Shown here: one piece after another, positions 4,587 to 58,286 of the stretch | Numbering within the stretch: the first letter of the stretch is position 1 | How the letters are laid out: every line of letters begins with the position of its first letter | IMG/VR virus record: IMGVR_UViG_3300021090_000723 | Coordinates: 32,001 to 96,000 of that record | Length of the DNA stretch: 64,000 nt | Reading direction: 5' to 3' (one strand) | Source: a virus | The notes under the pieces: generated by a model | Databases searched by the model: none | What the model saw: the letters and a program-made list of their open reading frames with translations, nothing else | Told to the model about the DNA's origin: nothing | Program-made: the position numbers and the translations under genes

Positions 4587-4594
4587 GAGCGACC

Positions 4595-16291: not shown

Positions 16292-16381
16292 ATGCGCCTG
16301 TACGATTATTGCGTGTGGCTCGTGTTCGGGGGACCGCTTCTTCTCGCGATCCTGGTCGGCCTCATCAAGGTCTTCGCCTAG
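16292..16381 (+). CDS. Small hydrophobic peptide (29 aa), opposite strand to the late genes
   Basis: MRLYDYCVWLVFGGPLLLAILVGLIKVFA; AGGGA RBS; one TM helix. Confidence 0.55.
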   Translation: MRLYDYCVWLVFGGPLLLAILVGLIKVFA

Positions 16382-22300: not shown

Positions 22301-25300
22301 CGATGACCGTCTGGGTGGCCGGGTCGTAGGCCACGGCCGCTTCGGTCTTGGTGCGCTCACCGAAGGCGCGGAGCCAGTCGCCGATCGCCACGTTCACGGC
22401 TGCTGGCGTCTTGGCCTTCTTCTTCGCGACGAATTTCCCGAGGTCGTCGGCCAGGTCCGAATTGCCCTCCACGATCCGGCGCGCGAGCATGCCCTCGTCC
22501 CTCGGCGGCCGGGCGGGCGGCGCCAAGCCCAGGCCTTCGCCAGGCGCCTCGCTCAGGATGAAGCCGGCGGAGCGGCGCGGCGGGAGGTCCGGCTCGGGCG
22601 CCCCGGCCACGGGCTGGGGATCGGCCTCGATGAGGCCAAGCGCCTGGTCGATCTTGCGCTGACGCTTCAGCGCCGCCTGGTATTGGTCCTCGCGCTCGAA
22701 CGGGACCTTGACCAGTTCCTTGAAGTCCACGAGCTTCTTCTTCGCCGTGTCGATCTTGGCCTGGCGATAGTCGATCTCGCCTGGGCGGCTCTTGAAGAAG
22801 TTCTCGATGCGGCTGATGGCGCCCAACTTGAGCGACTGGAGATCGAGCTCCACCTTGTCGGTCATCTTGCCGTGGATCACGGCCTGCGGCTGGTAGTAGC
22901 CGTCGACCTCAACCGAGATCGGGAAGCCGTACATCTTGCCGATCGGGATGTCCTCGATCTCGGCGTTGCGCTTCCGGCCCTGGGCCTCGTTCTTGGACTT
23001 CTGGAGGTTCCAGGCCTTCTCGATGATGTCGGCCAGCGCCTTGGACGCATCGACGCGCTTCTCATAGACCGTGCCCAGGATGGTGTAGTGCGGCTTGTCC
23101 TTGCGTTCGAGGTAGGCGGCGTGGTCGGCTTTGACCCGCCCGCGCGCCTCTTCCATCCCGGCGATCTCGCCCGGCAGGCGGTGGATCTGCCACTCCATTT
23201 CGTGGATGTTGTCGTAGTGCGCACCGCGCAGGCGCGAGAGACGATCGACGTCCGAGTCCGCCTTCGCCTTGTCCAGGATCAGCGGGTTGCCCGCGGCGAG
23301 GGCCTTGGCCTCGGCGAACGACAGCACCTGCTCATCGATGTCTTCGGCCTCGCGGACCGAGGGATCGCCGCGCTTGATCTGGTTGATGAAGCGGGCCTTG
23401 CGCTCGACGGTCTGCCACATATAGGCGTCGAACGATCCTTCGGTGACGTAGCGGAAGAGGTCGATCTCTTCGTTCGTGTTGCCCTGACGCTCGATGCGGC
23501 CCTCGCGCTGCTCGATGTCCGATGGGCGCCACGAGGGGTCGACGTGGTGGAGCGCCTTCAGGCGGTCCTGCACGTTCGTGCCGATGCCCATCTTCTCGGT
23601 CGAGCCCAGCAGGATGCGCTTGCGGCCGGCGCGCACGTCGGCGAAGAGGTTCGCCTTCTTCTGATCGGTGTTGGCGTCCTGGACGAACGCGACATCGTTC
23701 GCGTTCACGCCCTTCTTGACCAGTTCCTCCTTGATGTCGCGATAGATGCTGTAGGCCACGTTCGACGGGACCGACATATCGCAGAAGATGATCTGGGTGT
23801 GCTTTTCCTTGGCGCCCGCCTTGTAGATGCGCGCCGCGTTGCTCGCGACCTCGGAGGCCTTCCGGACCTTTTCCTTCCTCGCGGCCGGGTCCACCACACG
23901 CAGATCGAGCGATGCCTTGCGGCCGTCGGTCGAGATCAGCAGCATGTTGTCTTCGTCGGGCGTCACCTCGCGCTTGCGGACCGCCTCGGCGCGCTCGCCG
24001 ATCTCCGCGATGTAGGCCTTGAGCGCATCGCTCGCGGGCACGATGATGGTCTTGGGCCCGCCGCCGCTGATCTTCGGGAGCTTCACCTGGCCGGTCGCGA
24101 TCAGGTCGTCCTTGCTCACCAGGTCCGAGAACTGCCGGTACATCGAGATCAGTTCGGGGATGTTGCGGAAGCGCGCGAAGCGGGTCTTCAGCATCGCCTT
24201 TCCGCCCTCGGGCGTGATCTCGGCTTGCGTGACGGTGTCGCCGAAGGTCGAGGCCCAGGCGTCGAAGTGCGAGAGGCCGCGCTCGGCCAGCCCGCGCGGC
24301 TGGAGATAGCGCTGCATCGTGTACATTTCGGCCATCGAGTTCGAGATCGGCGTGCCGGTCATGAACATGAGGCCGCGGCCCGGCGTCATCTTGTCGATGT
24401 ACTTGGTCTTCAAATAGAGATCGAACGCCCGCTGGCTCGACGGCGGGTTCATGTTCGTGATCTTCGTCGCGAATTCCAGGTTCTTGAACAGGTGGGCTTC
24501 ATCGACAAAGATGCCGTCGACCCCCATTTCCTCGAACGACAGGCCCCGGTCCTTGTCCTTGGCCTGCATCAGTTCGCGGAGCTTTTCCTCACGGCGCTTC
24601 TTCGCGGCTTCCAGCTGCTTGACCGTCGGGCTGCGGCCCCCGGTGTCGGTCTCGCGCGCGGCACGGATCAGGTCCGCATATTCGGCGATCTCGTCGCGGA
24701 TATAGTCAGCCTGGAACTTGGCCGACATGCCGACGCGCTCGAAACTGGAGTGCGTCATGATGATCGCGTCCCAGTTTCCGGCCGCCGCACGGGCGACGAA
24801 GCGACGGCGATTGTCGCCAGCGAAGGCGCGCTCGTCCGCCACCAGGATGCTGGCGTTCGGGTACAGCTGCATGAACTCGCGGCTGAACTGCTCCAGCATG
24901 TGGTTCGGGACGGAGAACAGCGGCTTGCTCAGCAGGCCTATGCGCTTGGCCTCCATGGCGGCCGCGATGGCCGTGAACGTCTTGCCGGCGCCCACCAGGT
25001 GGTCGAGCAGCGTGTTGCCCGAGACCAGGTAGCGCCAGACGGCCTTCTTCTGGGTGGAGCGCAGTTCGATCGTGCTGCTGGAGCCAGGAAGCGTCAGGTG
25101 ATCGCCGTTGAAGGTGGCGACCCGGAGGTTGTTGAAGTTGTCGTTGTAGAAGCGGGACAGCCGCGCACCGCGCTCTGGGTCCTTCCAGATCCACTTGGAG
25201 AAGCGCTCCTTGATGTCGTTCTGCTTTTCCTGCGCCACGATGGTGGCGTTCATGTCCGTGTGGGTCTTGCCCTCGGAGTCCTGCCAGGAAATGACGGTCG

Positions 25301-28300
25301 ACTTCTGGTTAAGCGCATCGCGGATGAGGTCGATGCCGCGGCGCGCGATCGACTTGCCCTCGGCGCGCGAGGTCGTCCAGTTGACCGACCAGGTCTGGGT
25401 GTTGGGCGCGGTGCCCTCCTGGGCAATGCGCACGTGCCAGGTCGCTTCCTTCGGCACGTATTCAACGATGGCCTCGGTCTCGAGCAGTTCGGAAATGAAC
25501 CCCTCGACGTCCGAGTTGGGAATCCACGGCGTGCCCATGCGCACCGCGATCTGAGACGGCTTCAGATCGACTGGCTGGACGACTTCGAGCGCCTTGACGT
25601 TCTCGGCCCACTCGGGCTCGCCCTTGGCAGCGTCACGCGCGAAGGCCAACTTTCCGCGCACGTTGCCCGAGAGATAGACCTCGGACGGCTCGTAGGCGCC
25701 GGTCGCCGGGTTCTTGAAGATGCGGCCCTTGAGTTCGTTGAGGAACGTGCTCGGCTGACGGCCCAGGATTTTTGCCATGTAGGGCACGTCGACTATGCCC
25801 TTCATGTTCATGGACGCGATCAGCGCCTCGTCCGGCGTGTTCACGCGGAGGATTTCGCGCGTCGGCTCGACCACGCGATCGGTGAAGATCGGGCCTTTGA
25901 TGCCCTCGTTCTTCTCTTCATCGAAGCGCTCGAGCGCGGAGACCAGCGCCGCGTCCGGATCGTCACGGAACGCCAGCATGTTCGGGTAGCGGCGGTATTC
26001 GCGCACCTCACCGTCCGGCATCGTGCGCCGGCTGATCTGAACCTGGTTGATGTAGCCGAACGCCTTGACGAACTGGGCGTAGAGTTTCCCCAGTTCCTTC
26101 TGCGGCGCGACCCACGGGGCCGTGCCCTTGCCTTCCCACTCGCCGCGCTGCGCGGTCAAGATCTCGCGGGCCTTGTCGCGGAGCCTGATGAGCAGGCGCA
26201 CGCGCCCGGCCTGGCCGTCGGAGAGTTCGACCGGCACGGAGGATTGCAGCACGCGCTGGAACAGCTTGCCGTCACGTTCGAAGAAGGCGTTGTCCTTCAC
26301 CGTGTCGGGCGGCGGCGCCAGGTCATCGTATGTGTCCACGTCCCCGGCCTCGGGATCGAAGCGGAGCGCGGACTTCTCCATCATGGCCTGGACGGCATTG
26401 GCGATCTTCTCGCGCAGGCCCGTTGCCGTTCCGGTAACGGTGTATTCGTCCTCGCGGTACATGCCGCGCGTGACGGCGTTCGTCCCCAGGATCATGTTGG
26501 GGTTGTCTTTGAAATACTGATTGACCGTCGCCGGGCTCGTGCCGACGCGGAACTCCTTGGCCTCCAGCCAATCCGGCTTCCCGGCAGGCTCGCCCTCCTT
26601 CCGCTTACGGATGAACAGGATGTCCGTGACGACTTGGGTCCCGGCGTTCTCCTTGAAGGCGGTGTTGGGGAGACGGATGGCGCCGATCAGGTCGCCGCCG
26701 GCGTCCCGGATCATGGTGCGCGCGGTCTTGTCCTGCGAGTCCATCGTGTAGCGGCTGGTCACGAGCGCAAGCACGCCGCCAGGTTTGACCAGCTTCAGGC
26801 TCTTGAAGATGAAGTAGTTGTGCAGGCTGAGCGGGCGGCCCTTATTGTACATCTTGTCGGCCGGGCGAATGTCGCCGAACGGCACGTTGCCGATGACAAG
26901 GTCCACGCTGTCTTCCGGAAGCGCGGTGTCCTCGAAGCCCTGCACGAAGATGCGCGCCTCGGGGTAGAGCGCTCGCGCGATCTTGCCGGTGACGTCGTCA
27001 AGCTCCACGCCGATGAACTTCGGATCGCTGCCCTTCGGGCGCATGCCCATGAAGTTGCCGATGCCCATGCCGGGTTCGAGCACGTTGCCCGAGCCGGTGA
27101 AGCCGAGTTCGGTCACGCCGTCCCAGATGCCGCGAACCACATCCTGGCTGGTGTAGTGCGCGTTGATGGTGGTCGCGCGAGCCGACGCGAACTGCTCCGG
27201 CGTCAGCATGGCCTTCAGCTGCTCGCGGTAGGGGATCAGGCCGTAGTCGAGCCCGCGGCCCTCATCGAAGATCTTGGCGAGGCCCGTGGCGCCCCAGCCC
27301 ACGTAATGGGCAAGCTGCTCCTGGTCCTCACGGCTGGCGAGTTGCCCGCCCTTCTCCAGGTCGAGAGCGACCCGGATGGCTTCGATGTTCTTGACGATGC
27401 GCTGGGCTGGACTGCCGGTGGCATAATCGGCGTCTTCAGCGATGCGGAAGTTTAGTCCTCGTATCCCCCGCTTGGCCCGATCCCCGAGGCTTCCCTCTCG
27501 CTCATCGGGAGATACTCCCTCAGGGCGTCCGACTCCGCCATCAGGAGGGCGCTCCGCTCCAGCTTGATCCGTCTCTCCAGAGGCTCGTCCTGGCTCACTT
27601 GCGGAAGTTGGCTGTTGACCCAGTTCGCTATCGATTCCGATAGGTCCTGGACCCTCTGCTCCAGCTTCCCCTCCGCCTTCAGGCCCGCGAACTCCTGTGG
27701 TCGGTGCACCCGCAGGTGCCCTTCCACCTTGCTCCGGTAGCTTTCCGGGCTGACCTTTTGCACGTTTTTCCCTTTCGAGCTCGGCCCAGCGCTTCGGAAT
27801 ATCGATCTTTTTGAGCGCTTCTTCAACTGCCTGCTTGGAGTCGGGCAGCGGCGTGTAGGTCTTTTCCTTGAGCGATCCGTCCTCGTTCCACTCCAGCTGG
27901 TCGAGCAGGCCGCGCCACATCAGGGCGAAATTGGCGCGCTCTTCCTCGGCGGGATAGGGCGTGCCGCGATAGCCGGCTTCCTTGGTCGTCTGGCCTTCCG
28001 CCACCCAGCCATTGACCAGGTAGGGCGAGGTCTGCCCCTTGGCGGCCAGTTCATCGTAGATGAAGGACTCGAACGAGCGCGCCCACAGTTCCTCGGGCCG
28101 CACCCAGTATTTGCCAAGCTCTTGGGCGTTGCGCTTGAACTTGGTCGTGAGCTTCGCGCTCCACCCCTCGTTCTGCCAAAGGTGGTCCACGTACTGCTCG
28201 GCGGTCTTGAGCGGGCCCAGGCCTTGCCTGCCCCGGATGTGCGACCGGCCGGTGAGCAGATTGTCGACCATCTTGATCGCACCCTCCACGTCCCAGGTGT

Positions 28301-31300
28301 GGGAGAGCGTGCCGTTGACGCTTGCGAGCAGGGCGCGCGCACTCTGACCGGCGGCCAGCAGCGCCTTCTTCTCGGCCTGGAGCGGCTTGACCTTGTCGGA
28401 CAACTCCATCGAGTTGATCGTGCCCTCGCGGTTCCGCTTCACCAGCGCCTCGATCTCCTTGTCGATCGCCGGGACCCGGACGCCGCCTGCGCGCAGGTTG
28501 AAGTCGAGCGCATGGCCCCATTCGTGCGACAGGGACCCGTCGCCCTTGGTCTTGGTCAGGTTGATGACGTTGGTGTCTGGCTCGTAGTGAGCGGAGCCGA
28601 ACCCAGATCCGCGCGAGCCGAACGCCAGGCCCAGCTTACCGCCGATGGAGATTGCCTTCGCTGGCACACCCATTATCTCGGCGAAGTCCATGAGCGCGTC
28701 GTAGGCGGCGTTGACGTGCGCCTGGCCCTCGCGGCCGGTGACCCAGTTCCCGAACTCGACGCCGCGGAAGCCGAAGGTCTTGCGGAAGTCCTCGGCCTTG
28801 ACGTTCTTGCCCGCCTTCCGGCGCTCGGGCAGGCCCGGGCGCGTGATGTCCTCGATCCGGATGCTCGGCCGCACGAGGGGCGTGGCGCGTGTCGGCATCG
28901 TGTTGTCGTCGCGGAAGTGGGGCAGGCCTTCGTCCAGGCGCCACAGGTTCGGCCACGAATAGTGGTGCAGGTACGGCCGCAACGTCTTCTGCGCCCAGTC
29001 CGTGGCGATGACGCGCGCCGACATGCCTTCCGGGCGCTGGACCTCTTTGACGATCAGGCGCTTGAGCGCGGCGTGGATGTCCTCGACGTTCTTCGCGCCG
29101 GCGAGCGCATCGCCCAGGATCTCCATCGCGCCGATGTATTCGGCGGCGTTCTCCAGGATGGTCTCGCGCTTCTCCTCCCAGCGCTTCTCCAGCGTCTTTC
29201 TGAACGGCGTGCGCCATTTGCCACGGCCGCCGCCCTGGTTCTTACCCTCCTGCTCGGTGAAGGTGACGAACGAGCGGGAGACGAAGTCGGCGAAGACGTG
29301 GGCGCCGGTCGTGGCGTCAGCCGCCAGGCGGGAGCGGAGGTCCCGCGCGTCCAGAGCCTGCTCGAGCATCTTGTCCAGATCCTCGATCTTCTCGACCTTG
29401 GCTTTGGCCTGGGCGCGCTTGCCCGCCATGGCCTCGCCCACGTCCGTCATCTTCGGCATGGGCGCGCGGCGGTCGGTGACCGGCTTCCTTGGTTCTTTGA
29501 CCGGCCTCTTCTCGGGCGCCTCGATTGTTTCACGTGAAACATCAACGGCCTGGGGCAGAATCGCGGTGGTCGTGTCGCCCTCTTCGATCCACCGTTTGAA
29601 GTCGGCCACGTTCATTTCGAGGCCGCCGTTCTTCCGGCGCTGCGGCCCCGAGCCGTCCGAGTACCCGGCGTCATAGACCGCGATGGCCTGCTCCGGGGTG
29701 TCGACCGCGGCGATGGCCTTGTGCTCATCGAACTTGCCGGTCTTCGGATCGTACTGATCGATGACGAAGACCTTGTCGCTCTTCAGGTTCGGTCCGAGGT
29801 AAATGTCCAGCTTTTCCTGCTGGTTAGGCGGGGCGTTCGGCTTCGCATCCGCACCGATCGAGCGCTTGATGTAGCCGTAGTCGGCCAGGATGTTGACGTT
29901 CGTCCAGATCGGCTTGCCGTCCTCGCCCTCGGGCCCAAGGCGATCCGTGCCCTTCGGCGTCTCGATAGTGATGTCCAGGCCGTTCCAGTTCTCGATGTGG
30001 CCCTTGGCGTAATTCCCAGCCTCGCGCTGCGCCTCGGTCGTCTCCTTGGCGACCGCGTCACGCGCCGGCTGGATGTCTTCCTCGGTCTCCGGACGCTTGA
30101 CGGGGTTGGTCTTGGTGCCTTCCGGCGCCCGGGCGACGTGCTTGATCTTCGCAAGCTGCTCTTTGGCGCTGGCGATGAGGCCGAGGGCGTCCCGCTTCGC
30201 AGAGTCGGGCCAGCTGCCCGACATTGCCCGCTCGACATAGCTGGTCACATAGGCCTTGGCTTCGTCCAGCGTGGCGAATTCGTTCGCGTGCGAGCCGCCC
30301 ATGCCGCCCGCTTGGCTGGTGATGTTGTACGAAATGCGCGGGACCGTGTAGCGGGCCTCCTGCGGGTCGTAGACGATCATAAACGCGAGGTTGCTGCTGC
30401 TCTTCTTCGCCTTGGCCGGGAGCAGTTTGCCGGTGTCGAGCACCACTTCGCCGCGCTCCATGACGGCCTCGTGCTCGTCCCGGGCGACCTTCTCGCGCGC
30501 CCTCCGGGCGTCGTGCTCGGCATCCTCGGCGGCGCGCTGGCTTTTGGCTTCCTTGGCGATCGTCGGCCACTTGTACTCAAGGTCGGACTGCTCGGCCTTC
30601 GCCTTCGCGATGTCCACTTTGTAGCGCTCGATCTGGCTCTTCCACGTGTCGAGGTTGATCTTGGATGGCTTCTTCGGTCCCGCCAGGGCCTCGTCCATGC
30701 GCTTCTGCGTCTCGGCCATGTTGTGCTGGTAGGCCGAGAGGTGGAATTCGCGCTGGCGGTAGTCGTCCAGATCCTGCGCCATCGGATGCTCGGGGGCTTC
30801 CGGCTGCTCGCGCTCCACCAGGTAGTCGCCAATGTCCTTGACCAGGTCCGGGAACTTCTTGCCGTACCACTCCAGGCGCAGGCCCTTGGCCGCGGCGCGC
30901 GCGGCGTAGATCGACTTGTCCCAGCCCGGCTCCGGGGTGAAGCGCTCTTCCTGCGCCTCTTCCTCGGCGCGATCGGCCTCCATCTGGACGATCTCGTCCG
31001 TGGTGGGCTCCATCACGTCTTCGCCGGACTTCTCGCCGGGCGCGAGTTCGCGCGCTGGCGGGGTTATGAGACCAGGCAGCGGCTCAACGGGACCTTCGCC
31101 TTCGCGTTGCGCCATGCGCCGGGCTTCATCGGCGCGCTCATCGGCAATGCGCGTTTCCAGCGCCGCGCGCATCAGCCCGGTTTTGGTGTCGTAGTTCCGG
31201 AGGATGTGCTCCTGGAACACATCGGCGGCTTCCACGCCGAACGAGTCGGCATAGGCGCCCCACCAGTTCACGAATTCCTCAGGGGCGGCGGTGAAGGCCT

Positions 31301-33665
31301 CCTTGGCCTCTTTATCGAGCCGGTCCTTGGCCTTGGCGTTCTTCGGCGGCTTGCCGGTGGCGGGATCGTTGCCCGAGTCGATGTAGGCCTGCGCCGCGCG
31401 CAGCTGGTTGATGGGCTCTTCGAAGTGCCGCAACGCCTCATCGTGGAAGGCGCGCAGCGTTTCGGTGCGCTCTTCCGGCGTCTCGGCCGGGTTCTCGTCC
31501 CAGAAGCCGGGGCGTCCGGCTTCGCGCAGCGCTTCATCCGCAGGCTCGGGGAACGTCTTCTTGAAGTCGAAGGGCAGTCGTTTGCCGCTCGACTTCTTGC
31601 CCTTTTCCTTGGCGAGATCGGCGGCCTCGCGCTCGATCTGGGCCATTTCCGCCTCGACGTCCTGGGCGGGCTTGGTGCCCGGCACGGTGAACGTCTCCTT
31701 GGGCGGCGTCTCCCTGATCCATTCCTCACTAGGCTCACCTGGCGGCTGGGTGAGATCGGCGCGCTTGACGTCGCCGGTCTTCACGTTGTGCCAGCCGATC
31801 TGGTTGTCCTCTTCGTCGAAGAGCGCTTGCCAGTCCTTGCCACGGGGCTTGGGCGGCATTTCTGCCTTCGGCGGCTGGGTTGGTGGCTTGGGCGGTGGCT
31901 CTGGAGCCTGTTCGGCCGCACCCGCTGGCGGCTCTCCTGGCGCGCCTGGGCGCTCCATCGTGGGCTCGACGCGCGGCTTTTCCGGCTCGCCCTCGCCCCG
32001 GACGAACGGGTGCGTGGCCGCCGCGATCGTGCCGCCCATCACGCCGCCGGTGAGGCCCGCGGCGATCACTGCGCGGGTGGCTTCACCGAACGTCATCTTC
32101 TCGTTCAGGATGCCCATGGAATAGCCGGTCTGGAGCACCTGGGTGAACATTTCCTGGATGCCTTCGGCGCCTGCCGCCTTGAGCGTGCGCGGCAGGAACT
32201 TCCCGCCCTCCTTGATGATGATCCCGAGCGGGATTTTCTCGCCGGCTGTTTCGGCGAAGGCCATGAACGCGCCGTCGAGCGCGGCCTGGGTGGGCGAGCG
32301 GCCGTTCTTGGCGGACTCGCTGTACTGCTCCAGGCCGACCTGGCTTCCCATCATGGCGAGGCCGATGGCCGGGCTTCTGGTCAGGATGGACGCGCCGACG
32401 GTCGCCAGCATGGGCACGCCGGACTCGATGGCGTTGAAGTAGACACCCTTGATGCTGAGTGGATCGAGGTCTTTCGGGGCGCTCTCCTCGAGATCCTTGA
32501 GCGCGGCGAAGGCGATCTTGCCGCCGATGGTGCTGCCAGCGTCCTTGACCGCCTTCTCGCGCGCGGCGAGCATGCCCTGGTACGCCTCTTCGACCTGTGG
32601 CGGCAGCTTGCCGGTGAACGGATTGACCTGTTCGATCGGATAAGGGACCGGGGCCTGGTCCATGGCGAGAATCGCGCCGCCGATCATGTTCTTCAGGTGC
32701 AGCGGCACGCGCTCGGCGGCCGCCATGGTCAGTTCACCGAAGCTGGGCCCGGGGTCCTTCTTGCCGATGCCCGCGATGAACGCGCGCGCCGCGCCGGCGC
32801 CGACGCCTTCCACGTCGGGTTGCTCGATGGGCTTGAACGGCTTCTGTTTGGCCGCGAACGCCTCGGCGGCCGCGGGCGTCTCGAACTTGCCCATGTGCTG
32901 GCCGGTCTGCTTGTAGCGCTCGATGATCGCTTCGTCTGACTCGCCCTCGGTCAGCTGCGGGAGCACGGTCTCCTTGAAGATGCCGTTCTCCGTGAACTCG
33001 AACGAGCGCGTGCCCGCAAAGTCGCCCTTGTAGTTGCCCGGTTCGAGCAGGCCCGGCTCCTGGCGCACGAAGTCCGGCTTGTCAGCGACCGCCTGCGGCG
33101 CAGCGGTGATCGGCTCTTCGGAAACGATCGCATACGGATCATCGCCGCCGGGCGGCGCAGCGGAGATCGCCGTCGGGTCGATCGGCTCTTCGGAAACGAT
33201 GGCATACGGGTCGTCCTGCGGCCCCTGAGACATTTGGACCACGCGCTGGACGTAGTCGTTCGTCTCCGGGAACGGGATCTGGGCGATGAACTCGGCTTCG
33301 CTGATCTCGCCCTTGCGCGGATCGCCCAGGCGGTTGAGCCAGCCTTCGAGCGCGCCCGGGCCAGCGTTGTAGGCCGCACCCGCGAGCGCCGGGCTTCCAT
33401 AGCGCTCAAGCATGGCGGCCGCATAGTCGACGCCTACGCGGTCAAGCTCTTCCGGAGTGTCGTTCGCCGCCGGGCGGACGCCAAAGCCCGGGTCCTTCGC
33501 GGTGCCCGGCATAACCTGCATTTCGGAGCGCGCGCCCTTGGGAGAGACCGCGTTGATCGGGCTCGCTTCCGCGCGCCGGATGATGCTGGGGAAATCGACA
33601 GGCGTGGGCGCGAGCCCTCCGCCGTCCATCGGTTCTTCCGAGACGACGTCCCATTCGTTGACCAT
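16365..33665 (-). CDS. Giant polyvalent virion/ejection protein (5766 aa): SLT transglycosylase, PPase-like, LPD1-like, N6-adenine MTase + SNF2 helicase (DarB-like), JAB-like, zincin, LPD38-like
   Basis: AVSPKGA..EMQVMP/AAYNAGPG/ET.DYV (SLT); ADYGYI...GAD..D.Y.GP...DEHK (PPase); FGFRGVEFGNW..HEWGHALD; VLEPGMGIGNF and GNVPFG (MTase); VGAGKT, DEAH, TGTPISN, QREGRIERQGN (SF2); HHNH.....S.AD (JAB); HEVIH; IEEIQSDWHQ; NFNRRG..LYLFYNASIQG. Confidence 0.9.
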   Translation of the reverse strand: MVNEWDVVSEEPMDGGGLAPTPVDFPSIIRRAEASPINAVSPKGARSEMQVMPGTAKDPGFGVRPAANDTPEELDRVGVDYAAAMLERYGSPALAGAAYNAGPGALEGWLNRLGDPRKGEISEAEFIAQIPFPETNDYVQRVVQMSQGPQDDPYAIVSEEPIDPTAISAAPPGGDDPYAIVSEEPITAAPQAVADKPDFVRQEPGLLEPGNYKGDFAGTRSFEFTENGIFKETVLPQLTEGESDEAIIERYKQTGQHMGKFETPAAAEAFAAKQKPFKPIEQPDVEGVGAGAARAFIAGIGKKDPGPSFGELTMAAAERVPLHLKNMIGGAILAMDQAPVPYPIEQVNPFTGKLPPQVEEAYQGMLAAREKAVKDAGSTIGGKIAFAALKDLEESAPKDLDPLSIKGVYFNAIESGVPMLATVGASILTRSPAIGLAMMGSQVGLEQYSESAKNGRSPTQAALDGAFMAFAETAGEKIPLGIIIKEGGKFLPRTLKAAGAEGIQEMFTQVLQTGYSMGILNEKMTFGEATRAVIAAGLTGGVMGGTIAAATHPFVRGEGEPEKPRVEPTMERPGAPGEPPAGAAEQAPEPPPKPPTQPPKAEMPPKPRGKDWQALFDEEDNQIGWHNVKTGDVKRADLTQPPGEPSEEWIRETPPKETFTVPGTKPAQDVEAEMAQIEREAADLAKEKGKKSSGKRLPFDFKKTFPEPADEALREAGRPGFWDENPAETPEERTETLRAFHDEALRHFEEPINQLRAAQAYIDSGNDPATGKPPKNAKAKDRLDKEAKEAFTAAPEEFVNWWGAYADSFGVEAADVFQEHILRNYDTKTGLMRAALETRIADERADEARRMAQREGEGPVEPLPGLITPPARELAPGEKSGEDVMEPTTDEIVQMEADRAEEEAQEERFTPEPGWDKSIYAARAAAKGLRLEWYGKKFPDLVKDIGDYLVEREQPEAPEHPMAQDLDDYRQREFHLSAYQHNMAETQKRMDEALAGPKKPSKINLDTWKSQIERYKVDIAKAKAEQSDLEYKWPTIAKEAKSQRAAEDAEHDARRAREKVARDEHEAVMERGEVVLDTGKLLPAKAKKSSSNLAFMIVYDPQEARYTVPRISYNITSQAGGMGGSHANEFATLDEAKAYVTSYVERAMSGSWPDSAKRDALGLIASAKEQLAKIKHVARAPEGTKTNPVKRPETEEDIQPARDAVAKETTEAQREAGNYAKGHIENWNGLDITIETPKGTDRLGPEGEDGKPIWTNVNILADYGYIKRSIGADAKPNAPPNQQEKLDIYLGPNLKSDKVFVIDQYDPKTGKFDEHKAIAAVDTPEQAIAVYDAGYSDGSGPQRRKNGGLEMNVADFKRWIEEGDTTTAILPQAVDVSRETIEAPEKRPVKEPRKPVTDRRAPMPKMTDVGEAMAGKRAQAKAKVEKIEDLDKMLEQALDARDLRSRLAADATTGAHVFADFVSRSFVTFTEQEGKNQGGGRGKWRTPFRKTLEKRWEEKRETILENAAEYIGAMEILGDALAGAKNVEDIHAALKRLIVKEVQRPEGMSARVIATDWAQKTLRPYLHHYSWPNLWRLDEGLPHFRDDNTMPTRATPLVRPSIRIEDITRPGLPERRKAGKNVKAEDFRKTFGFRGVEFGNWVTGREGQAHVNAAYDALMDFAEIMGVPAKAISIGGKLGLAFGSRGSGFGSAHYEPDTNVINLTKTKGDGSLSHEWGHALDFNLRAGGVRVPAIDKEIEALVKRNREGTINSMELSDKVKPLQAEKKALLAAGQSARALLASVNGTLSHTWDVEGAIKMVDNLLTGRSHIRGRQGLGPLKTAEQYVDHLWQNEGWSAKLTTKFKRNAQELGKYWVRPEELWARSFESFIYDELAAKGQTSPYLVNGWVAEGQTTKEAGYRGTPYPAEEERANFALMWRGLLDQLEWNEDGSLKEKTYTPLPDSKQAVEEALKKIDIPKRWAELEREKRAKGQPGKLPEQGGRAPAGAPTTGVRGPEGGGEAGAEGPGPIGIDSELGQQPTSASEPGRASGETDQAGAERPPDGGVGRPEGVSPDEREGSLGDRAKRGIRGLNFRIAEDADYATGSPAQRIVKNIEAIRVALDLEKGGQLASREDQEQLAHYVGWGATGLAKIFDEGRGLDYGLIPYREQLKAMLTPEQFASARATTINAHYTSQDVVRGIWDGVTELGFTGSGNVLEPGMGIGNFMGMRPKGSDPKFIGVELDDVTGKIARALYPEARIFVQGFEDTALPEDSVDLVIGNVPFGDIRPADKMYNKGRPLSLHNYFIFKSLKLVKPGGVLALVTSRYTMDSQDKTARTMIRDAGGDLIGAIRLPNTAFKENAGTQVVTDILFIRKRKEGEPAGKPDWLEAKEFRVGTSPATVNQYFKDNPNMILGTNAVTRGMYREDEYTVTGTATGLREKIANAVQAMMEKSALRFDPEAGDVDTYDDLAPPPDTVKDNAFFERDGKLFQRVLQSSVPVELSDGQAGRVRLLIRLRDKAREILTAQRGEWEGKGTAPWVAPQKELGKLYAQFVKAFGYINQVQISRRTMPDGEVREYRRYPNMLAFRDDPDAALVSALERFDEEKNEGIKGPIFTDRVVEPTREILRVNTPDEALIASMNMKGIVDVPYMAKILGRQPSTFLNELKGRIFKNPATGAYEPSEVYLSGNVRGKLAFARDAAKGEPEWAENVKALEVVQPVDLKPSQIAVRMGTPWIPNSDVEGFISELLETEAIVEYVPKEATWHVRIAQEGTAPNTQTWSVNWTTSRAEGKSIARRGIDLIRDALNQKSTVISWQDSEGKTHTDMNATIVAQEKQNDIKERFSKWIWKDPERGARLSRFYNDNFNNLRVATFNGDHLTLPGSSSTIELRSTQKKAVWRYLVSGNTLLDHLVGAGKTFTAIAAAMEAKRIGLLSKPLFSVPNHMLEQFSREFMQLYPNASILVADERAFAGDNRRRFVARAAAGNWDAIIMTHSSFERVGMSAKFQADYIRDEIAEYADLIRAARETDTGGRSPTVKQLEAAKKRREEKLRELMQAKDKDRGLSFEEMGVDGIFVDEAHLFKNLEFATKITNMNPPSSQRAFDLYLKTKYIDKMTPGRGLMFMTGTPISNSMAEMYTMQRYLQPRGLAERGLSHFDAWASTFGDTVTQAEITPEGGKAMLKTRFARFRNIPELISMYRQFSDLVSKDDLIATGQVKLPKISGGGPKTIIVPASDALKAYIAEIGERAEAVRKREVTPDEDNMLLISTDGRKASLDLRVVDPAARKEKVRKASEVASNAARIYKAGAKEKHTQIIFCDMSVPSNVAYSIYRDIKEELVKKGVNANDVAFVQDANTDQKKANLFADVRAGRKRILLGSTEKMGIGTNVQDRLKALHHVDPSWRPSDIEQREGRIERQGNTNEEIDLFRYVTEGSFDAYMWQTVERKARFINQIKRGDPSVREAEDIDEQVLSFAEAKALAAGNPLILDKAKADSDVDRLSRLRGAHYDNIHEMEWQIHRLPGEIAGMEEARGRVKADHAAYLERKDKPHYTILGTVYEKRVDASKALADIIEKAWNLQKSKNEAQGRKRNAEIEDIPIGKMYGFPISVEVDGYYQPQAVIHGKMTDKVELDLQSLKLGAISRIENFFKSRPGEIDYRQAKIDTAKKKLVDFKELVKVPFEREDQYQAALKRQRKIDQALGLIEADPQPVAGAPEPDLPPRRSAGFILSEAPGEGLGLAPPARPPRDEGMLARRIVEGNSDLADDLGKFVAKKKAKTPAAVNVAIGDWLRAFGERTKTEAAVAYDPATQTVIAAETSGKDTYVNLRGKIEDALSKPDARIVFHHNHTMPYGLSFADLTLLDLPGLDWMIAHTTEGQWHAARLTPETRRAFADLDLTLWSSPSDILNKMLQESQNAQGRVGRSLIRERGLDRNLAVANFSHNFAVGLARAGLIDYRSSVVVPESLAATFDTMAQAGAEAIASPLKAIGVVNVSDRGTAPTQFADGIAEILGEDQGLAVEPRGGAGEGARPEGVGRGLERLRLPQAPPVIETGDGVTFTFSPEFEAKREQLAADLRAYLVNRNLPLAVRVADAIADPEGHEADGHFDITKNLITIALDTKDPFGTITHEVIHGLRNLGFFTKSEWATLEAAAKDKWKRTFDIVGKYYKPDVQTEETIAFAAQNYEPSNEFAKAGLATKVLQRVRNFFEGLRNFFRGRGFQTPEDIFKRIESGRIGKRGKAGPTRSEAKFALKPQPPAPFFSTLARTIEASKQEKASGIQWQAFIKNARGITKDETEWTGVNEWLESQQGPVTKQALLDFIRENNVQIEEVEKGRAPGDDEGPYPENIEDWLPDEERTIQPEGQRYYSEMAFDADDASVTFHYDQRGVVTRVNAIRAGRELGDFGDFIEAREAIHRDAGIVAEGGATKFESQTLPGGENYRELLLTLPQIGVPFDPAKVRIERNRRSTTQGDVTVFYGDHKVGTWDDPIVLNSVTKKYEGPNDAHWIDVMRRRYPGDRSLAIDALSGQFRSGHFDEANILAHVRFKDRADADGKRVLFIEEIQSDWHQKGRRQGYSVKETRSPVFSIFDDQGELVGTRPTLDQAQEFIRDKHGRRPAWNRDDQAPMDTTNWTIKEGEAIEKRTGVPDAPFKSTWHEIALKRMLRYAAENGYDRLAWTTGAQQAERYNLAKHVNSLRLTDNVSGGIGRPRMDGPFERGHLIAYGKRNEEAINRQIESRDDLAELVGAELADKLLAVTPVEGRSAGLGVRVREISGLDLTVGGEGMKGFYDRIVPQFLNRYAKKWDAKVGTTKIDTGKESEPSWTVAETHPQKKQGVIDVHSLDVTPAMRESVMEGQGLFARRMPPGANAFTMFTDSPQPSVVDYLRNSNLSLMERLKGAASLSAINASFDKWRVGFQDRYLKVARMQAAIEQMLGRPLTEEENAYLAEELSSGRKGAKLEDLFERQIRPLVLAMHERGISREELETFLYARHAPERNARINEINPKFREEGIAGSGMSDEDARGIMDEVDKTGRRADFDALAGMVDDVLAFALNTRVEAGLMSEEQAEAWRATYRDYVPLRGVAELDPEVEADRPRPGKGFDVKGKESHRAFGRQSPARDILAYAFMQAEEAIIRGENNRIGNAIYELAKAAPNENFWKVDKVAMRPVWIKARQEVQYWPVRRILAEDAPYTLSTKIDGQEHRITFNRNNPVARDLAQGLKGLGQDQISLLIRNFGAINRILSHVNTTLNPEFVITNAFRDAQTALSNIQAHGDIKGITKGTVKDYRKALVASSRSAFKAEPGKTLMPWMAKDQAEWDRWAQEFRENGGRVYFNQMEDVLELRKRLDGQMREIGTSKLNPIMAMKTLGRIIENTNIGVENAIRLSAYKNARERGFTPAKAASLAKNLTVNFNRRGSWGPLMNSLYLFYNASIQGTATLLTAWKSPRVRKVAAFAVLTGFLLDFLNAFVSDEDDDGQLLYDKVTPFDKSRNLIVMTPSEGGVAAKIPLPYGYNIFYGVGRSIAEVMRGKDPLESAGNLAITIMDSFNPVGGAQNLLNMIAPTTMDPVVDLFMNKDYAGRPIAPEQSQYGPQVPNSQRYWNSVSPAYKAVTDFLSTASGGTGVEPGLIEISPEWLDYGFGVAWGAAGTFYERNFLDLPMKFADPTSTITFNDIPFVRRVVTSKPPWIDKATFYERINKIEQSRAYARDYQREGRRPEARGFVQENRAMLSLYNDANNARTELSEIRASRAQAKMALEQGRMARPRYNEQVRILNEAEERIIRMFNAEYLERTRRRP
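21620..21769 (-). CDS. Nested overprinted small gene (49 aa) in +1 frame of the giant ORF
   Basis: GGAG-7 nt-ATG; MYLIEEPPPLSSPMALRRFLARTKDLPSSPEVEQARARAQKALEEALKD; GC3 bias shifts to this frame. Confidence 0.6.
   Translation of the reverse strand: MYLIEEPPPLSSPMALRRFLARTKDLPSSPEVEQARARAQKALEEALKD
27452..27763 (-). CDS. Nested overprinted gene (103 aa) in +1 frame of the giant ORF; TnpV-like helical protein
   Basis: AAGGGA RBS before GTG; Y.....HL..HRP.....L...GKL pattern; nested frame is GC3-rich while the host frame is a Gly/Pro/Glu linker. Confidence 0.75.
   Translation of the reverse strand: MQKVSPESYRSKVEGHLRVHRPQEFAGLKAEGKLEQRVQDLSESIANWVNSQLPQVSQDEPLERRIKLERSALLMAESDALREYLPMSEREASGIGPSGGYED
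29526..29541. promoter_or_regulatory. parS: Perfect chromosomal-type parS site
   Basis: TGTTTCACGTGAAACA, 16/16 match to the bacterial parS consensus palindrome; encodes VSRET in the giant ORF. Confidence 0.85.
33109..33215. repeat. Direct repeat (about 35 nt, 72-nt period) encoding DDPYAIVSEEPI twice
   Basis: ATCGGCTCTTCGGAAACGAT at 33109 and 33181; a third degenerate copy (WDVVSEEP) at the N-terminus. Confidence 0.8.
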
Positions 33666-38977: not shown

Positions 38978-38995
38978 AAGAGGCAGCGCGTTGGC

Positions 38996-39043
38996 TTATC
39001 GCCAACAACCTCGTTCGGGAAATCGTTGCTGTCGATTGAGCAT
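38996..39043 (-). CDS. tRNA-block leader peptide D: MLNRQQRFPERGCWR
   Basis: ATG CTC AAT CGA CAG CAA CGA TTT CCC GAA CGA GGT TGT TGG CGA TAA; lists N,Q,Q,F,E,G,C,W, the amino acids of the surrounding tRNA block. Confidence 0.8.
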   Translation of the reverse strand: MLNRQQRFPERGCWR

Positions 39044-39048
39044 GCCAA

Positions 39049-39123
39049 TGGCTGCGGAGGACGGGCTCGAACCGCCGACCTCGCACTTAACAGGCGCTCG
39101 CTCTACCACTGAGCTACTCCGCA
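39049..39123 (-). tRNA. trnN: tRNA-Asn(GUU)
   Basis: AGCGC-CT GTT AA-GTGCG; G73; CCA end. Confidence 0.92.
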
Positions 39124-39147
39124 CTGCCGTCTCCATTGGTTGGCCCA

Positions 39148-39195
39148 CCAGGTGGGCGAGGCGCCGGTTTTGTCAACCGGGCCCCGAAATGTCAA
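39148..39195 (-). promoter_or_regulatory. Putative promoter of tRNA block D
   Basis: Two TTGACA hexamers (39195-39190 and 39176-39171); -10 poorly conserved. Confidence 0.55.
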
Positions 39196-39208
39196 GCAGA
39201 GTGTAAAG

Positions 39209-39284
39209 TGGCGTCCCCGGTAGGAATCGAACCCACGTCTGGCCGGATTAGAAGTCCGGTGCCTTTCCGCTAGGCTACGGGGAC
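39209..39284 (-). tRNA. trnR: tRNA-Arg(UCU)
   Basis: CCGGA-CT TCT AA-TCCGG; CCA end. Confidence 0.92.
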
Positions 39285-39286
39285 GT

Positions 39287-39361
39287 TGGAGGACCAGGCG
39301 GGGCTCGAACCCGCAACCGTTCGATTAAAAGTCGACTGCACCACCATCGTGCTGCTGGTCC
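39287..39361 (-). tRNA. trnK: tRNA-Lys(UUU)
   Basis: GTCGA-CT TTT AA-TCGAA; C8; CCA end. Confidence 0.9.
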
Positions 39362-39362
39362 G

Positions 39363-39434
39363 TGAACCGGGTGGGACTTGAACCCACAACCATCGGATTA
39401 AGAGTCCGCCGCACCACCATCGTGCTGCCGGTTC
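39363..39434 (-). tRNA. trnK: tRNA-Lys(CUU), no encoded CCA
   Basis: GCGGA-CT CTT AA-TCCGA; D-arm identical to Lys(UUU). Confidence 0.88.
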
Positions 39435-39465
39435 AAAACGATCGCCGACTATAGTCGGCGGAAGT

Positions 39466-39540
39466 TGGCGTGCGCGGAGGGAGTCGAACCCACAGCTTCC
39501 AGATTCGTAATCTGGCGCTCTTCCGTTGAGCTTCGCGCAC
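39466..39540 (-). tRNA. trnR: tRNA-Arg(ACG)
   Basis: CCAGA-TT ACG AA-TCTGG; A8; CCA end. Confidence 0.92.
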
Positions 39541-39544
39541 AAAC

Positions 39545-39619
39545 TGGCGTTCCCGGGTGGATTCGAACCACCGCCCTTCAGATCCGGAATCTGACGCTCC
39601 TCCGCTGAGCCACGGGAAC
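39545..39619 (-). tRNA. trnR: tRNA-Arg(CCG)
   Basis: TCAGA-TT CCG GA-TCTGA; CCA end. Confidence 0.92.
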
Positions 39620-39649
39620 AAGTCAAAAATCGCCACATCTGACGTAAAC

Positions 39650-39724
39650 TGGCGCGCGTTAGGGGTATCGAACCCCTGACCTTCCGGTTGACAACCGGGT
39701 GCTCTCCCTCTGAGCTAAACGCGC
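39650..39724 (-). tRNA. trnD: tRNA-Asp(GUC)
   Basis: CCCGG-TT GTC AA-CCGGA; G73; CCA end. Confidence 0.92.
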
Positions 39725-39728
39725 AGTC

Positions 39729-39805
39729 TGGTCGCAGGGGCTGGGATCGAACCAGCGCATGACGCCCTTATGAGGGGCGGGCCTTTCCAGCTTGGCTACC
39801 CTGCG
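39729..39805 (-). tRNA. trnM: tRNA-Met(CAU) elongator (or Ile2)
   Basis: CGCCC-CT CAT AA-GGGCG; paired 1:72; CCA end. Confidence 0.85.
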
Positions 39806-39877
39806 TCGTTCTGGATGGTCTCGAACCACCGTCCTCACGATTATCGGTCGCGCGCTCTACCACTGAGCTACAGAACG
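39806..39877 (-). tRNA. trnI: tRNA-Ile(GAU), no CCA, abuts tRNA-Met with zero spacer
   Basis: CGCGA-CC GAT AA-TCGTG (C33). Confidence 0.85.
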
Positions 39878-39881
39878 TCAT

Positions 39882-39956
39882 TGGTACGCGCAGAGGGGAT
39901 CGAACCCACCGTTTCCGGGTCCACAACCCAGCGTCCTTCCATTGGACGATGCGCGC
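39882..39956 (-). tRNA. trnH: tRNA-His(GUG), alphaproteobacterial type
   Basis: CTGGG-TT GTG GA-CCCGG; no G-1; G1-U72; A73; CCA end. Confidence 0.92.
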
Positions 39957-39960
39957 GAAT

Positions 39961-40037
39961 TGGTCTGAGCGGCAGGATTCGAACCTGCGTGTACCTGGTC
40001 CCAAACCAGGTGCGTGACCAGGCTACGCTACGCTCAG
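39961..40037 (-). tRNA. trnP: tRNA-Pro(UGG)
   Basis: CCTGG-TT TGG GA-CCAGG; C1-G72; CCA end. Confidence 0.92.
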
Positions 40038-40042
40038 GAAAA

Positions 40043-40119
40043 TGGTCGCCCCTGCACGGAATCGAACCTGCGACCTCCCGGGTGTAGGCCGGGCACTCTA
40101 CCAGCTGAGCTAAGGGGCG
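40043..40119 (-). tRNA. trnV: tRNA-Val(UAC)
   Basis: CCCGG-CC TAC AC-CCGGG (C33); one-base T-stem bulge; CCA end. Confidence 0.85.
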
Positions 40120-40171
40120 GCGCGGTGAACGGGGGAGCGGGCGTGGGCCCGCGGTGAGGGACGAGGTCGCC

Positions 40172-40249
40172 TTAGGCGACGACTATCCTATGCGGTCGAA
40201 TGGACATTCGCCGCTTTCTTGGATCTCGTGGTTTGAGAACCGTGCTCAT
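40172..40249 (-). CDS. tRNA-block leader peptide C: MSTVLKPRDPRKRRMSIRPHRIVVA
   Basis: ATG AGC ACG GTT CTC AAA CCA CGA GAT CCA AGA AAG CGG CGA ATG TCC ATT CGA CCG CAT AGG ATA GTC GTC GCC TAA; contains V,P,H,I,M,D,R,K, all downstream tRNA identities. Confidence 0.8.
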   Translation of the reverse strand: MSTVLKPRDPRKRRMSIRPHRIVVA

Positions 40250-40257
40250 GGCCGGGG

Positions 40258-40286
40258 TGTATGACGGATCATCTTGTTGTCGTCAA
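40258..40286 (-). promoter_or_regulatory. Promoter of tRNA block C (leaderless start)
   Basis: TTGACG-17 nt-CATACA, 8 nt before the leader ATG. Confidence 0.65.
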
Positions 40287-40294
40287 CAACGTGA

Positions 40295-40381
40295 TGGTCG
40301 GAGCGGAGGGATTCGAACCCTCTAGCCGCAAGCGGACCGGATTTACAGTCCGGCGCAACCCACCGTCTTTGCCGCGCTCCG
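40295..40381 (-). tRNA. trnY: tRNA-Tyr(GUA)
   Basis: CCGGA-CT GTA AA-TCCGG; long variable arm; C1-G72; CCA end. Confidence 0.92.
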
Positions 40382-40417
40382 TATATCAAACAGGCCGTTT
40401 CGGTATACGTTTGAGAT

Positions 40418-40499
40418 TGGTAGGCCCGGAGAGATTTGAACTCTCACGCCGAGGCGCCTGCTTCTGAGGCAGGTGTGTCTGCCGTTCCACCACGGGCCC
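40418..40499 (-). tRNA. trnL: tRNA-Leu(CAG)
   Basis: CCTGC-CT CAG AA-GCAGG; variable arm; CCA end. Confidence 0.92.
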
Positions 40500-40501
40500 A
40501 C

Positions 40502-40578
40502 TGGTAGGCGCGGAGAGACTCGAACTCTCAGATGTCGGGATTTAACGCCGATGCGTCTGCCGATTCCGCCACGCGCCC
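40502..40578 (-). tRNA. trnL: tRNA-Leu(UAA) lacking the long variable arm
   Basis: Leu-type D-arm GTGGCGGAATCGGCAGACGC; TCGGC-GT TAA AT-CCCGA; 5-nt variable loop; CCA end. Confidence 0.8.
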
Positions 40579-40585
40579 GAGAAGC

Positions 40586-40627
40586 TCAGGCAAGTCGTAA
40601 GGTGCGGTATCGTAGGTTCGTGCGCAT
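40586..40627 (-). CDS. tRNA-block leader peptide B: MRTNLRYRTLRLA
   Basis: ATG CGC ACG AAC CTA CGA TAC CGC ACC TTA CGA CTT GCC TGA; Leu x3 and Tyr ahead of Leu, Leu, Tyr tRNAs. Confidence 0.75.
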   Translation of the reverse strand: MRTNLRYRTLRLA

Positions 40628-40633
40628 GCGATC

Positions 40634-40666
40634 CTTCTTGCATTTCCCCGCGCGGCTGTCTACAGA
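40634..40666. promoter_or_regulatory. Overlapping divergent promoters for tRNA blocks A (+) and B (-)
   Basis: + strand TTGCAT-17-TACAGA (40638-40666); - strand TAGACA (40662-40657) with weak -10. Confidence 0.55.
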
Positions 40667-40675
40667 GCGGCCACC

Positions 40676-40738
40676 ATGTTCCGAACGCGAACCACTCGAG
40701 CGGCACGAGCCGCAACACGATCAAGTTCCTCTTCCTGA
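40676..40738 (+). CDS. tRNA-block leader peptide A: MFRTRTTRAARAATRSSSSS
   Basis: ATG TTC CGA ACG CGA ACC ACT CGA GCG GCA CGA GCC GCA ACA CGA TCA AGT TCC TCT TCC TGA; Thr/Ala/Ser ahead of Ser, Ser, Ala, Thr tRNAs. Confidence 0.82.
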   Translation: MFRTRTTRAARAATRSSSSS

Positions 40739-40741
40739 TAC

Positions 40742-40829
40742 GGAAGGGTGGCAGAGTGGTTTATTGCGGCGCACTGCTAACGCGCCGGACCTGAAGGTCC
40801 CGTAGGTTCGAATCCTATCCCTTCCGCCA
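40742..40829 (+). tRNA. trnS: tRNA-Ser(GCU)
   Basis: GCGCA-CT GCT AA-CGCGC; long variable arm; G73; CCA end. Confidence 0.92.
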
Positions 40830-58210: not shown

Positions 58211-58286
58211 GGGACTCTCCTTCAAGTTCTGGTCAGAAGGCGGAGGAACCGAATTAGGGCGCCCCCGAGACTGGTCAGGGCTCTCC

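Follow-up and report, generated by a model that had tools for sequence, protein, structure and literature searches.

In-frame CGA codons punctuate four short leader-like reading frames ahead of the tRNA genes of a phage and may act as slow decoding steps

Why should a phage place a codon that its own genes hardly use, over and over and in frame, within four tiny reading frames that stand just before its tRNA genes? The question arises in the genome of a freshwater phage, of 104,903 bp and with a G+C content of 64.6% (IMG/VR record IMGVR_UViG_3300021090_000723), of which bases 32001-96000, 64,000 nucleotides in all, form the stretch analyzed here (the window, whose numbering is used below with the strand in brackets). 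Between 38241 and 41104 the window carries a cluster of 28 tRNA genes, 24 on the minus and four on the plus strand, that covers all 20 amino acids. We listed all the ATG-to-stop frames in the gaps of this cluster and found four open reading frames (ORFs) of 13-25 sense codons, each located in one of the large gaps, upstream of a block of tRNA genes and on the same strand. We have named these ORFs leaders A to D, and the blocks that they precede blocks A to D.

A first-pass annotation of the sequence had counted 14 CGA among the 73 sense codons of the leaders. This number is exact, with 5 of 20 codons in leader A, 2 of 13 in B, 3 of 25 in C and 4 of 15 in D. As a reference we used 15,136 codons from likely phage genes, taken as ORFs with a G+C at third codon positions (GC3) above 0.7. 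There CGA is the second-rarest arginine codon, representing 0.51% of all codons and 6.6% of those for arginine (77 CGA sampled in the window), and CGC and CGG make up 51% and 22% of the arginine codons (73% together), in agreement with the preference that the annotation had described. The comparison of leaders with genes, 19% of codons versus 0.5%, confirms the excess. The binomial probability of 14 CGA in 73 codons is 2e-18 against gene usage and 7e-8 against the frequency of the CGA trinucleotide in any frame (2.7-3.2%). Besides, the excess is restricted to the reading frame, with 14, one and one CGA in frames 0, +1 and +2 of the leaders (P=1.2e-5). Shuffles of the sequence that preserved dinucleotides (n=20,000) gave a mean of 3.6 in-frame CGA and a maximum of 11, and 14 was never reached. 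When the 747 ATG ORFs of 10-30 codons found in the six frames of the 104.9-kb genome were ranked by their fraction of CGA, the four leaders occupied ranks 1, 2, 7 and 13. Two other CGA-rich ORFs, at position 11504 of the genome and 63144 of the window, were considered as leaders and discarded, being out of frame within coding DNA.

Arginine accounts for 19 of the 69 non-start codons of the leaders (28%), compared with 7.7% in the phage proteins, and 14 of these 19 (74%) are CGA, a proportion that has a probability of 6e-8 under uniform use of the six codons (1/6 each). In leaders A and D, whose blocks contain no tRNA-Arg as the annotation had pointed out, all 9 of the 9 arginine codons are CGA. 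The excess of CGA is highly non-random, codon-specific and frame-specific, and the use of CGA in 14 of 19 cases implies that a need for arginine residues is insufficient by itself as an explanation. Several other sources of the codon were considered and rejected. A rare-codon effect at gene starts does not account for it, as CGA is just 12% of the arginine codons within the first 20 codons of genes. The sequence contexts do not fit leftovers of the tRNA T-arm (TTCGA), and the slippery P-site codons needed for +1 frameshifting at CGA are absent. Neither does the codon usage of a donor genome appear as a source, since we know of no genome in which CGA is 74% of the arginine codons.

Natural variants of the region point in the same direction. 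Near-identical and diverged fragments of it are present in other freshwater and sediment metagenomes, and we have aligned the contigs of four runs on the region and translated the differences listed. Each of these variants comes from one contig, with a depth between 2 and 5. The list of differences leaves out the outer 30 nt of every aligned piece, and what the diverged contigs cover of leaders A and B falls in those end portions. In leader C the differences of runs X3-X5 are mostly synonymous (CCA to CCC, TCC to TCA, GTC to GTG, TAA to TAG and AGA to CGA, the last seen in two runs); CCA to CAA, TCC to ACC and TCC to AGA were also found. The CGA codons at 40226-28 and 40208-10 are untouched by any listed difference. 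In the variant of run X3 (40202-40219) codon 11 has changed from AGA to CGA and codon 16 from TCC to AGA through three substitutions, so that exactly one AGA is retained, which looks like compensation keeping the inventory of codons. In leader D, a variant of run X4 has an in-frame insertion of 9 nt that adds Gly-Thr-Pro and retains all four CGAs. The expectation that homologues keep CGA appears to hold on the leader C and D fragments from these metagenome contigs; the closest relatives that we fetched are devoid of the tRNA cluster. Conservation of the CGA codons appears supported, if thinly, on fragments. Taken together, the 14 of 19 arginine codons, the strict in-frame excess and the synonymous change of AGA to CGA argue for selection on the codon CGA and not on arginine.

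What the leaders encode is also related to what follows them. All 19 of the 19 amino-acid types of the four blocks are present in their own leader, and 40 of the 55 non-CGA codons match the block. Among the 24 permutations of leaders and blocks the true pairing scores 40 and the best of the 23 wrong ones 30. The match is at the level of amino acids and not of codon to anticodon, and about half of the codons of leader A can be read by the anticodons of its own block. Of nine leader codons for tRNAs with G34, seven have the weaker, wobble-read NNU form, a preference that fits sensitive sensor codons or a mere lack of the GC3 bias of genes (GC3 of the leaders without the CGAs is 0.55). The annotation had placed a CGA after every one to three sensor codons. 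Leaders A and D fit this description, B and C less strictly, and successive CGAs are 2-6 codons apart. A new regularity has appeared in the codons directly after CGA: the 13 that are sense codons all encode an amino acid of their own block (hypergeometric P=0.008 against 40/55), and the one CGA left over stands right before the stop of leader D. In leader B the CGAs precede Tyr and Leu, which belong to the block, and the two CGC precede Thr, which does not. This adjacency of CGA and sensor codon emerged on inspection of the data, and we use it as a lead and not as a test.

We give about an even chance to the reading in which CGA has been selected because it is a slow step, read through an inosine-adenine (I:A) wobble pair, that sets the pace or raises the sensitivity of translated leaders which gauge tRNA supply. 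That CGA is slow, the premise of the annotation, is well founded to the extent that in the Salmonella hisL leader it is enough to flip a bacterial attenuator, causing strong stalling and de-attenuation, and CGU and CGC, which the same ICG tRNA decodes, are read faster (PMC4046918). CGA would be slow in the host of this phage too, and it is rare in the ordinary genes of the same genome. In yeast, a CGA occupying the P site, together with its I:A pair, distorts the mRNA within the A site and slows the next step (bioRxiv 10.1101/755652). In the reading of CGA as a slow step, the mini-ORFs would be translated leaders that gauge the speed of the ribosome on the amino acids of the downstream tRNAs. 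Appearing every 2-6 codons and 5' of a block-matched codon, CGA would hold the ribosome within the short leader, and from the P site it may render the decoding of the next sensor codon rate-limiting. We know of no demonstration of this P-site effect on bacterial ribosomes.

The architecture of the leaders suggests where a held ribosome might act, as the stop codon of each lies in or beside the loop of a predicted hairpin of 6-7 bp. Leader A (40676..40738, +) has 20 sense codons, MFRTRTTRAARAATRSSSSS, and precedes tRNA-Ser(GCU), Ser(CGA), Ala(UGC) and Thr(UGU) by 3 nt. After every one of its CGAs (40682-84, 40688-90, 40697-99, 40706-08 and 40718-20, +) comes a codon for Thr, Ala or Ser. In the predicted hairpin at 40729..40748 (+) the stop is in the loop, and the last codons, CUCUUCC, pair with GGAAGGG, bases 1-7 of the tRNA-Ser. 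Leader B (40586..40627, -), of 13 sense codons, MRTNLRYRTLRLA, is 7 nt from tRNA-Leu(UAA), which is followed by Leu(CAG) and Tyr(GUA), and contains the two CGC already mentioned besides its CGAs (40610-12 and 40595-97, -). The predicted hairpin (40575..40591, -) spans the stop, and its 3' arm takes in the first four bases of the tRNA-Leu.

The longest is leader C (40172..40249, -), with 25 sense codons, MSTVLKPRDPRKRRMSIRPHRIVVA, and a gap of 52 nt before tRNA-Val, Pro, His, Ile, Met, Asp, Arg(CCG), Arg(ACG), Lys, Lys and Arg(UCU). Its CGAs are at 40226-28, 40208-10 and 40196-98 (-), and AGA, CGG and AGG are also present. The region folds well (z=-4.6), with GC hairpins that have no U tract. 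The stop hairpin (40166..40180, -) is predicted as GUCGCC-UAA-GGCGAC with the stop in the loop, and behind it the tract 40120-40171 (-) holds 29 C and 13 G in 52 nt. Further inside block C there are two hairpins with T runs that resemble intrinsic terminators, at 39443-39460 and 39631-39644 (-), one after tRNA-Asp and the other after tRNA-Arg(ACG), which divide the block into Val-to-Asp, Arg-Arg and Lys-Lys-Arg units. Leader D (38996..39043, -), of 15 sense codons, MLNRQQRFPERGCWR, is located 18 nt before tRNA-Phe, Gln, Cys, Gly, Gly, Trp, Glu, Glu and Gln. Of its CGAs (39032-34, 39023-25, 39011-13 and 38999-39001, -) the last abuts the TAA stop, and both are at the tip of the predicted hairpin GUUGGC-GAUAA-GCCAAC (38990..39006, -). 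The final CGA of leaders A, B and D is 0-4 codons upstream of the 5' arm of the hairpin. Another gap of the cluster, the 85 nt between tRNA-Arg(UCU) and tRNA-Asn (39124-39208, -), has two TTGACA boxes and two GC hairpins and contains no short ORF confined to it; the frame that starts with an ATG at 39136 continues via tRNA-Asn into leader D.

From this geometry, a ribosome held in the 3' part of a leader would keep the stop-codon hairpin open; were it to close in A and B, the 5' acceptor strand of the first tRNA would be trapped in it. The position of the ribosome would then affect the output of tRNA, and the candidate targets are the hairpins with tRNA 5' strands, the access of Rho or the processing. 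The C-rich tract behind leader C could serve Rho, by analogy with Salmonella speF orf34 (PMC6386406). A more elaborate version appears to us rather improbable: each leader would be a chain of programmed CGA-X dicodons, with X always an amino acid of its own block, and the build-up of tRNA-Arg(ACG) would retune all four blocks. The phage has three arginine tRNAs, with anticodons ACG, CCG and UCU, and no tRNA-Arg(UCG) was found anywhere in its genome. The only one able to read CGA, after editing of A34 to inosine, is tRNA-Arg(ACG) (39466..39540, -; anticodon loop UUACGAA; 62.5 bits to RF00005). Its gene sits in block C, so its accumulation would reach the decoding of CGA in all four leaders.

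A number of observations weigh against CGA as a pacing step in translated leaders. A clear Shine-Dalgarno motif was found in only one of the four leaders inspected, B, where an AAGGA lies 4 nt upstream of the ATG. There are hexamers similar to a -35 box 35-38 nt upstream of the ATG of leaders A, B and C, with poor -10 elements, and a scan of the region with the sigma-70 consensus gave no promoter. Given these weak promoter and ribosome-binding signals, that the leaders are translated, A, C and D perhaps from leaderless starts, is what we infer; the frame-specific CGA and the mostly synonymous variants lend it indirect support. A terminator scan found none in the leader gaps, including the spaces between leaders A, B and D and their first tRNA, and the link from ribosome position to output is thus a conjecture. 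Upstream of leader C there is another mini-ORF, MIRHTPRP (40246..40272, -), of eight codons, whose TGA overlaps the ATG of the leader (ATGA). It is made of the block C amino acids Ile, His, Pro and Arg plus Thr, and its arginine codons are CGT and CGG, with no CGA; since it lies within or upstream of the TTGACG that resembles a -35 box, a transcript starting at leader C may lack it. The support from variants is thin, coming from single contigs of low depth, and the 13 of 13 adjacency was noticed post hoc, with a P of only about 0.01. In Salmonella speF orf34, rare and frequent arginine codons regulate alike (PMC6386406). Finally, a crude scan detected no CGA-rich matched leader in the phages Caulobacter RBC63, Streptomyces Jada, Gordonia Sixama and Ruegeria RpAliso.

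The alternative that survives best, which we consider unlikely, is the shared sensor that the annotation had also proposed. CGA would be a sensor codon common to the four leaders that reports on functional tRNA-Arg(ICG), that of the host plus the tRNA-Arg(ACG) of the phage, and would give a joint response of the blocks, for example a global feedback upon accumulation of the phage tRNA or an alarm at cleavage or under-modification of tRNA-Arg. It would account for the presence of CGA in all four leaders and for its being densest in A and D, whose blocks lack an Arg tRNA, and no codon depends more on the amount of the ICG tRNA than CGA (PMC4046918). The leader codons for G34 tRNAs, which are likewise mostly the weaker NNU, fit it as well. 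The bacterial deaminase that converts A34 of tRNA into inosine, TadA, recognises a UACG core in the anticodon loop. The loop UUACGAA of the phage tRNA-Arg(ACG) carries this core, and such a canonical tRNA in a phage devoid of the UCG isoacceptor is what the shared sensor would use. However, it leaves unexplained why each CGA directly precedes a block-matched codon, and the 2-5 CGA per leader far exceed the 1-2 copies with which leaders C and D provide for the remaining sensor amino acids. No defence or phage function targeting tRNA-Arg(ICG) or TadA turned up in the genome, although no systematic search was made. The shared sensor is compatible with the brake and the two do not exclude each other. 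The annotation's proposal of a brake stands therefore in what concerns selection at the level of the codon, which the 14 of 19, the in-frame excess and the AGA to CGA variants favor; between brake and shared sensor these data do not separate.

Much less probable is that the arginine residues are what matters, by slowing a basic nascent chain in the exit tunnel or by making RNA-binding peptides, CGA being incidental. Actually, the enrichment in arginine and the strongly basic character of the leader peptides would suit such a role, and RNA hairpins are known targets of arginine-rich motifs, as in lambda N. But this predicts arginine codons that are gene-like (CGC, CGG), mutation-biased or used uniformly, which is at odds with the observed predominance of CGA, and the wild variant of AGA has changed to CGA and not to CGC. 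Moreover, beyond the periodic arginine there is no peptide motif common to the leaders. The idea of the annotation that nascent arginines alone favor stalling is consequently disfavored by the codon choice, the in-frame excess and the variants. The least probable option is that the ORFs are untranslated and the excess reflects a constraint on RNA or DNA (hairpin arms, TCGA palindromes, processing sites) or chance with frames chosen post hoc: some CGAs do fall within stems of the predicted folds (an example in leader C is the pairing of CGGCGAAUG with CAUUCGACCG), 5 CGA are found also in one unrelated out-of-frame ORF of the genome and the signals for promoters and ribosome binding are weak, but structure would hardly be expected to yield the 14/1/1 split or the failure of the shuffles, just 3 of the 14 CGAs form part of a TCGA, most differences in the variants are synonymous, with the stop retained and the indel in frame, the amino acids match the blocks strongly, and no Rfam family fits the gap sequences (with E values up to 1 admitted, nothing came up but tRNA models or weak hits, below threshold, that overlap tRNAs).

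How would a CGA-paced leader compare with known systems? The hisL experiments (Chevance, Le Guyon and Hughes 2014, PMC4046918) are similar in that the ribosome is slowed by a CGA within the short leader peptide of a bacterium, enough to alter the fate of the downstream transcript. There, however, the CGA was engineered into the attenuator of a biosynthesis operon with terminator and antiterminator, whereas in the phage leaders it is natural, in numbers of 2-5 per leader, before tRNA genes and with no terminator found after A, B and D. With the classical attenuators (trpL, hisL, thrL, pheL, ilvL) the leaders share the short upstream ORF, the enrichment in codons related to the product and the hairpins at the 3' end. 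Unlike in them, what would be regulated are tRNAs, each leader covers 2-8 amino acids, in A, B and D the CGA that would set the pace has nothing to do with the product, and no Rfam leader family was matched; the intrinsic terminator and antiterminator are missing in the scans of three of the four leaders. The pair CGA-CCG, present in leader C, is among the strongest stalling pairs of yeast in the account of Gamble et al. 2016 given by Tesina et al. (bioRxiv 10.1101/755652), and in the phage it is presumably the block-matched codon after CGA that is gauged. As far as this account goes, the yeast case is that of a eukaryotic defect triggering quality control rather than a regulatory device.

In a way comparable to that proposed for the leaders, arginine codons (AGG-CGG) and translation to the stop control downstream expression without an intrinsic terminator in speF orf34 (PMC6386406), through Rho and RNA refolding, and this could apply to leader C with its C-rich tail. 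It differs in sensing arginine with one pair of arginine codons and in regulating a protein gene, where the phage has periodic CGA. The tRNA-Leu(UAA) encoded by bldA in Streptomyces is a switch in which the rare codon UUA in regulatory ORFs ties their expression to one tRNA. The shared tRNA-Arg(ICG) sensor would follow the same principle, with the difference that in the phage CGA is in leaders rather than in regulator proteins and is not confined to regulatory ORFs, as the 77 in the sampled genes indicate. The bar-type toxic minigenes of lambda are ORFs of two to a few codons that end after a rare codon and cause peptidyl-tRNA drop-off. Such an identity was rejected for the leaders, which have 13-25 codons and of which only D ends in CGA-stop. 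Full-text literature searches retrieved no paper on leader peptides before phage tRNA genes and none on natural CGA pacing of attenuators.

We have examined seven GenBank phages for analogues, and two of them, the Mycobacterium phages StAugustine and Shelob, contain possible ones. In StAugustine (PV251870.1) an ORF of 20 codons (81321-81383 of the record, L016:6588-6650), MRTRIIARPLVAPRRRYSRR, with a strong ribosome-binding site, GGAAGGAG, is located 28 nt upstream of tRNA-Thr, Ile, Arg(ACG), Tyr, Arg(CCG) and Arg(UCU). Four of its eight arginine codons are CGA, and the codon after every one of these is for Thr, Ile, Arg or Tyr; in the long ORFs of the fetched locus CGA is 15.5% of the arginine codons. 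Shelob has an ORF of 23 codons starting with GTG (L019:10669-10740) before tRNA-Pro and tRNA-Trp, with CGA-CCC and CGA-TGG and a promoter-like TGATACGCT upstream. Only its 3' half is common to most of the 202 Bixzunavirus records, and with an N-terminal half that most of them do not share it is weak as an analogue.

Relatives of the phage place the cluster in context. The nearest one fetched (Ga0193708_1000223, our L012) is collinear with it, with 77-85% nucleotide identity on both flanks, and has an ORF of 264 amino acids (L012:8766-9560) where the phage (38226-41111) has the 28 tRNA genes, indicating that tRNAs and leaders form a module that is an accessory insertion or replacement. A second related contig (L003) ends short of the cluster, and the cluster was not found in the fetched stretches of ten long contigs from metagenome-assembled genomes (MAGs) that carry relatives of the capsid protein. 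Degenerate DNA patterns for the peptides of leaders C and D had 0 matches in the viral and genome contig collections, a query with a spurious ORF spanning seven tRNAs matched only an unrelated tRNA pair, and BLAST of the cluster against 50,697 phage records retrieved only similarity of single tRNAs.

The cluster is surrounded by virion genes, among them those for the capsid protein and tail-fibre-like proteins. The capsid protein (57296-58339, -) has 55 relatives (loci L021-L075) with 40-77% identity, mostly from freshwater. Their contigs have been binned in MAGs of many unrelated phyla and look like mis-binned phage contigs, suggesting that the phage family is widespread and that the labels of the bins are uninformative about the host. 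Beside the tail genes, 16365-33665 (-) is one open frame of 5766 codons (GC3 0.86) whose product would be an unusually large virion-associated protein for a phage of 105 kb. The phage also encodes a protein similar to nicotinamide/nicotinate phosphoribosyltransferases (8907-10937, +), of NAD salvage, and a RecT-family recombinase (4445-5836, +).

If CGA acts as a slow step in these leaders, phages would adjust the production of their own tRNAs through leaders read by the ribosome. The design would be compact, with a slow codon read by I:A wobble set immediately ahead of every sensing codon. The leaders would be a natural counterpart of the engineered codon-speed assays of hisL and would make a case for examining the P-site wobble effect on bacterial ribosomes. 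Should the less probable chain of CGA-X dicodons prove true, the P-site I:A effect would for the first time be seen in a natural regulatory role, and for the first time in bacteria or phages. StAugustine offers a cultured system where the idea is testable, and the in-frame CGA punctuation of tRNA-matched mini-ORFs would provide a signature to search for in other phage genomes. The same mechanism would have a bearing on how the tRNA sets of phages respond to host defences that target tRNAs.

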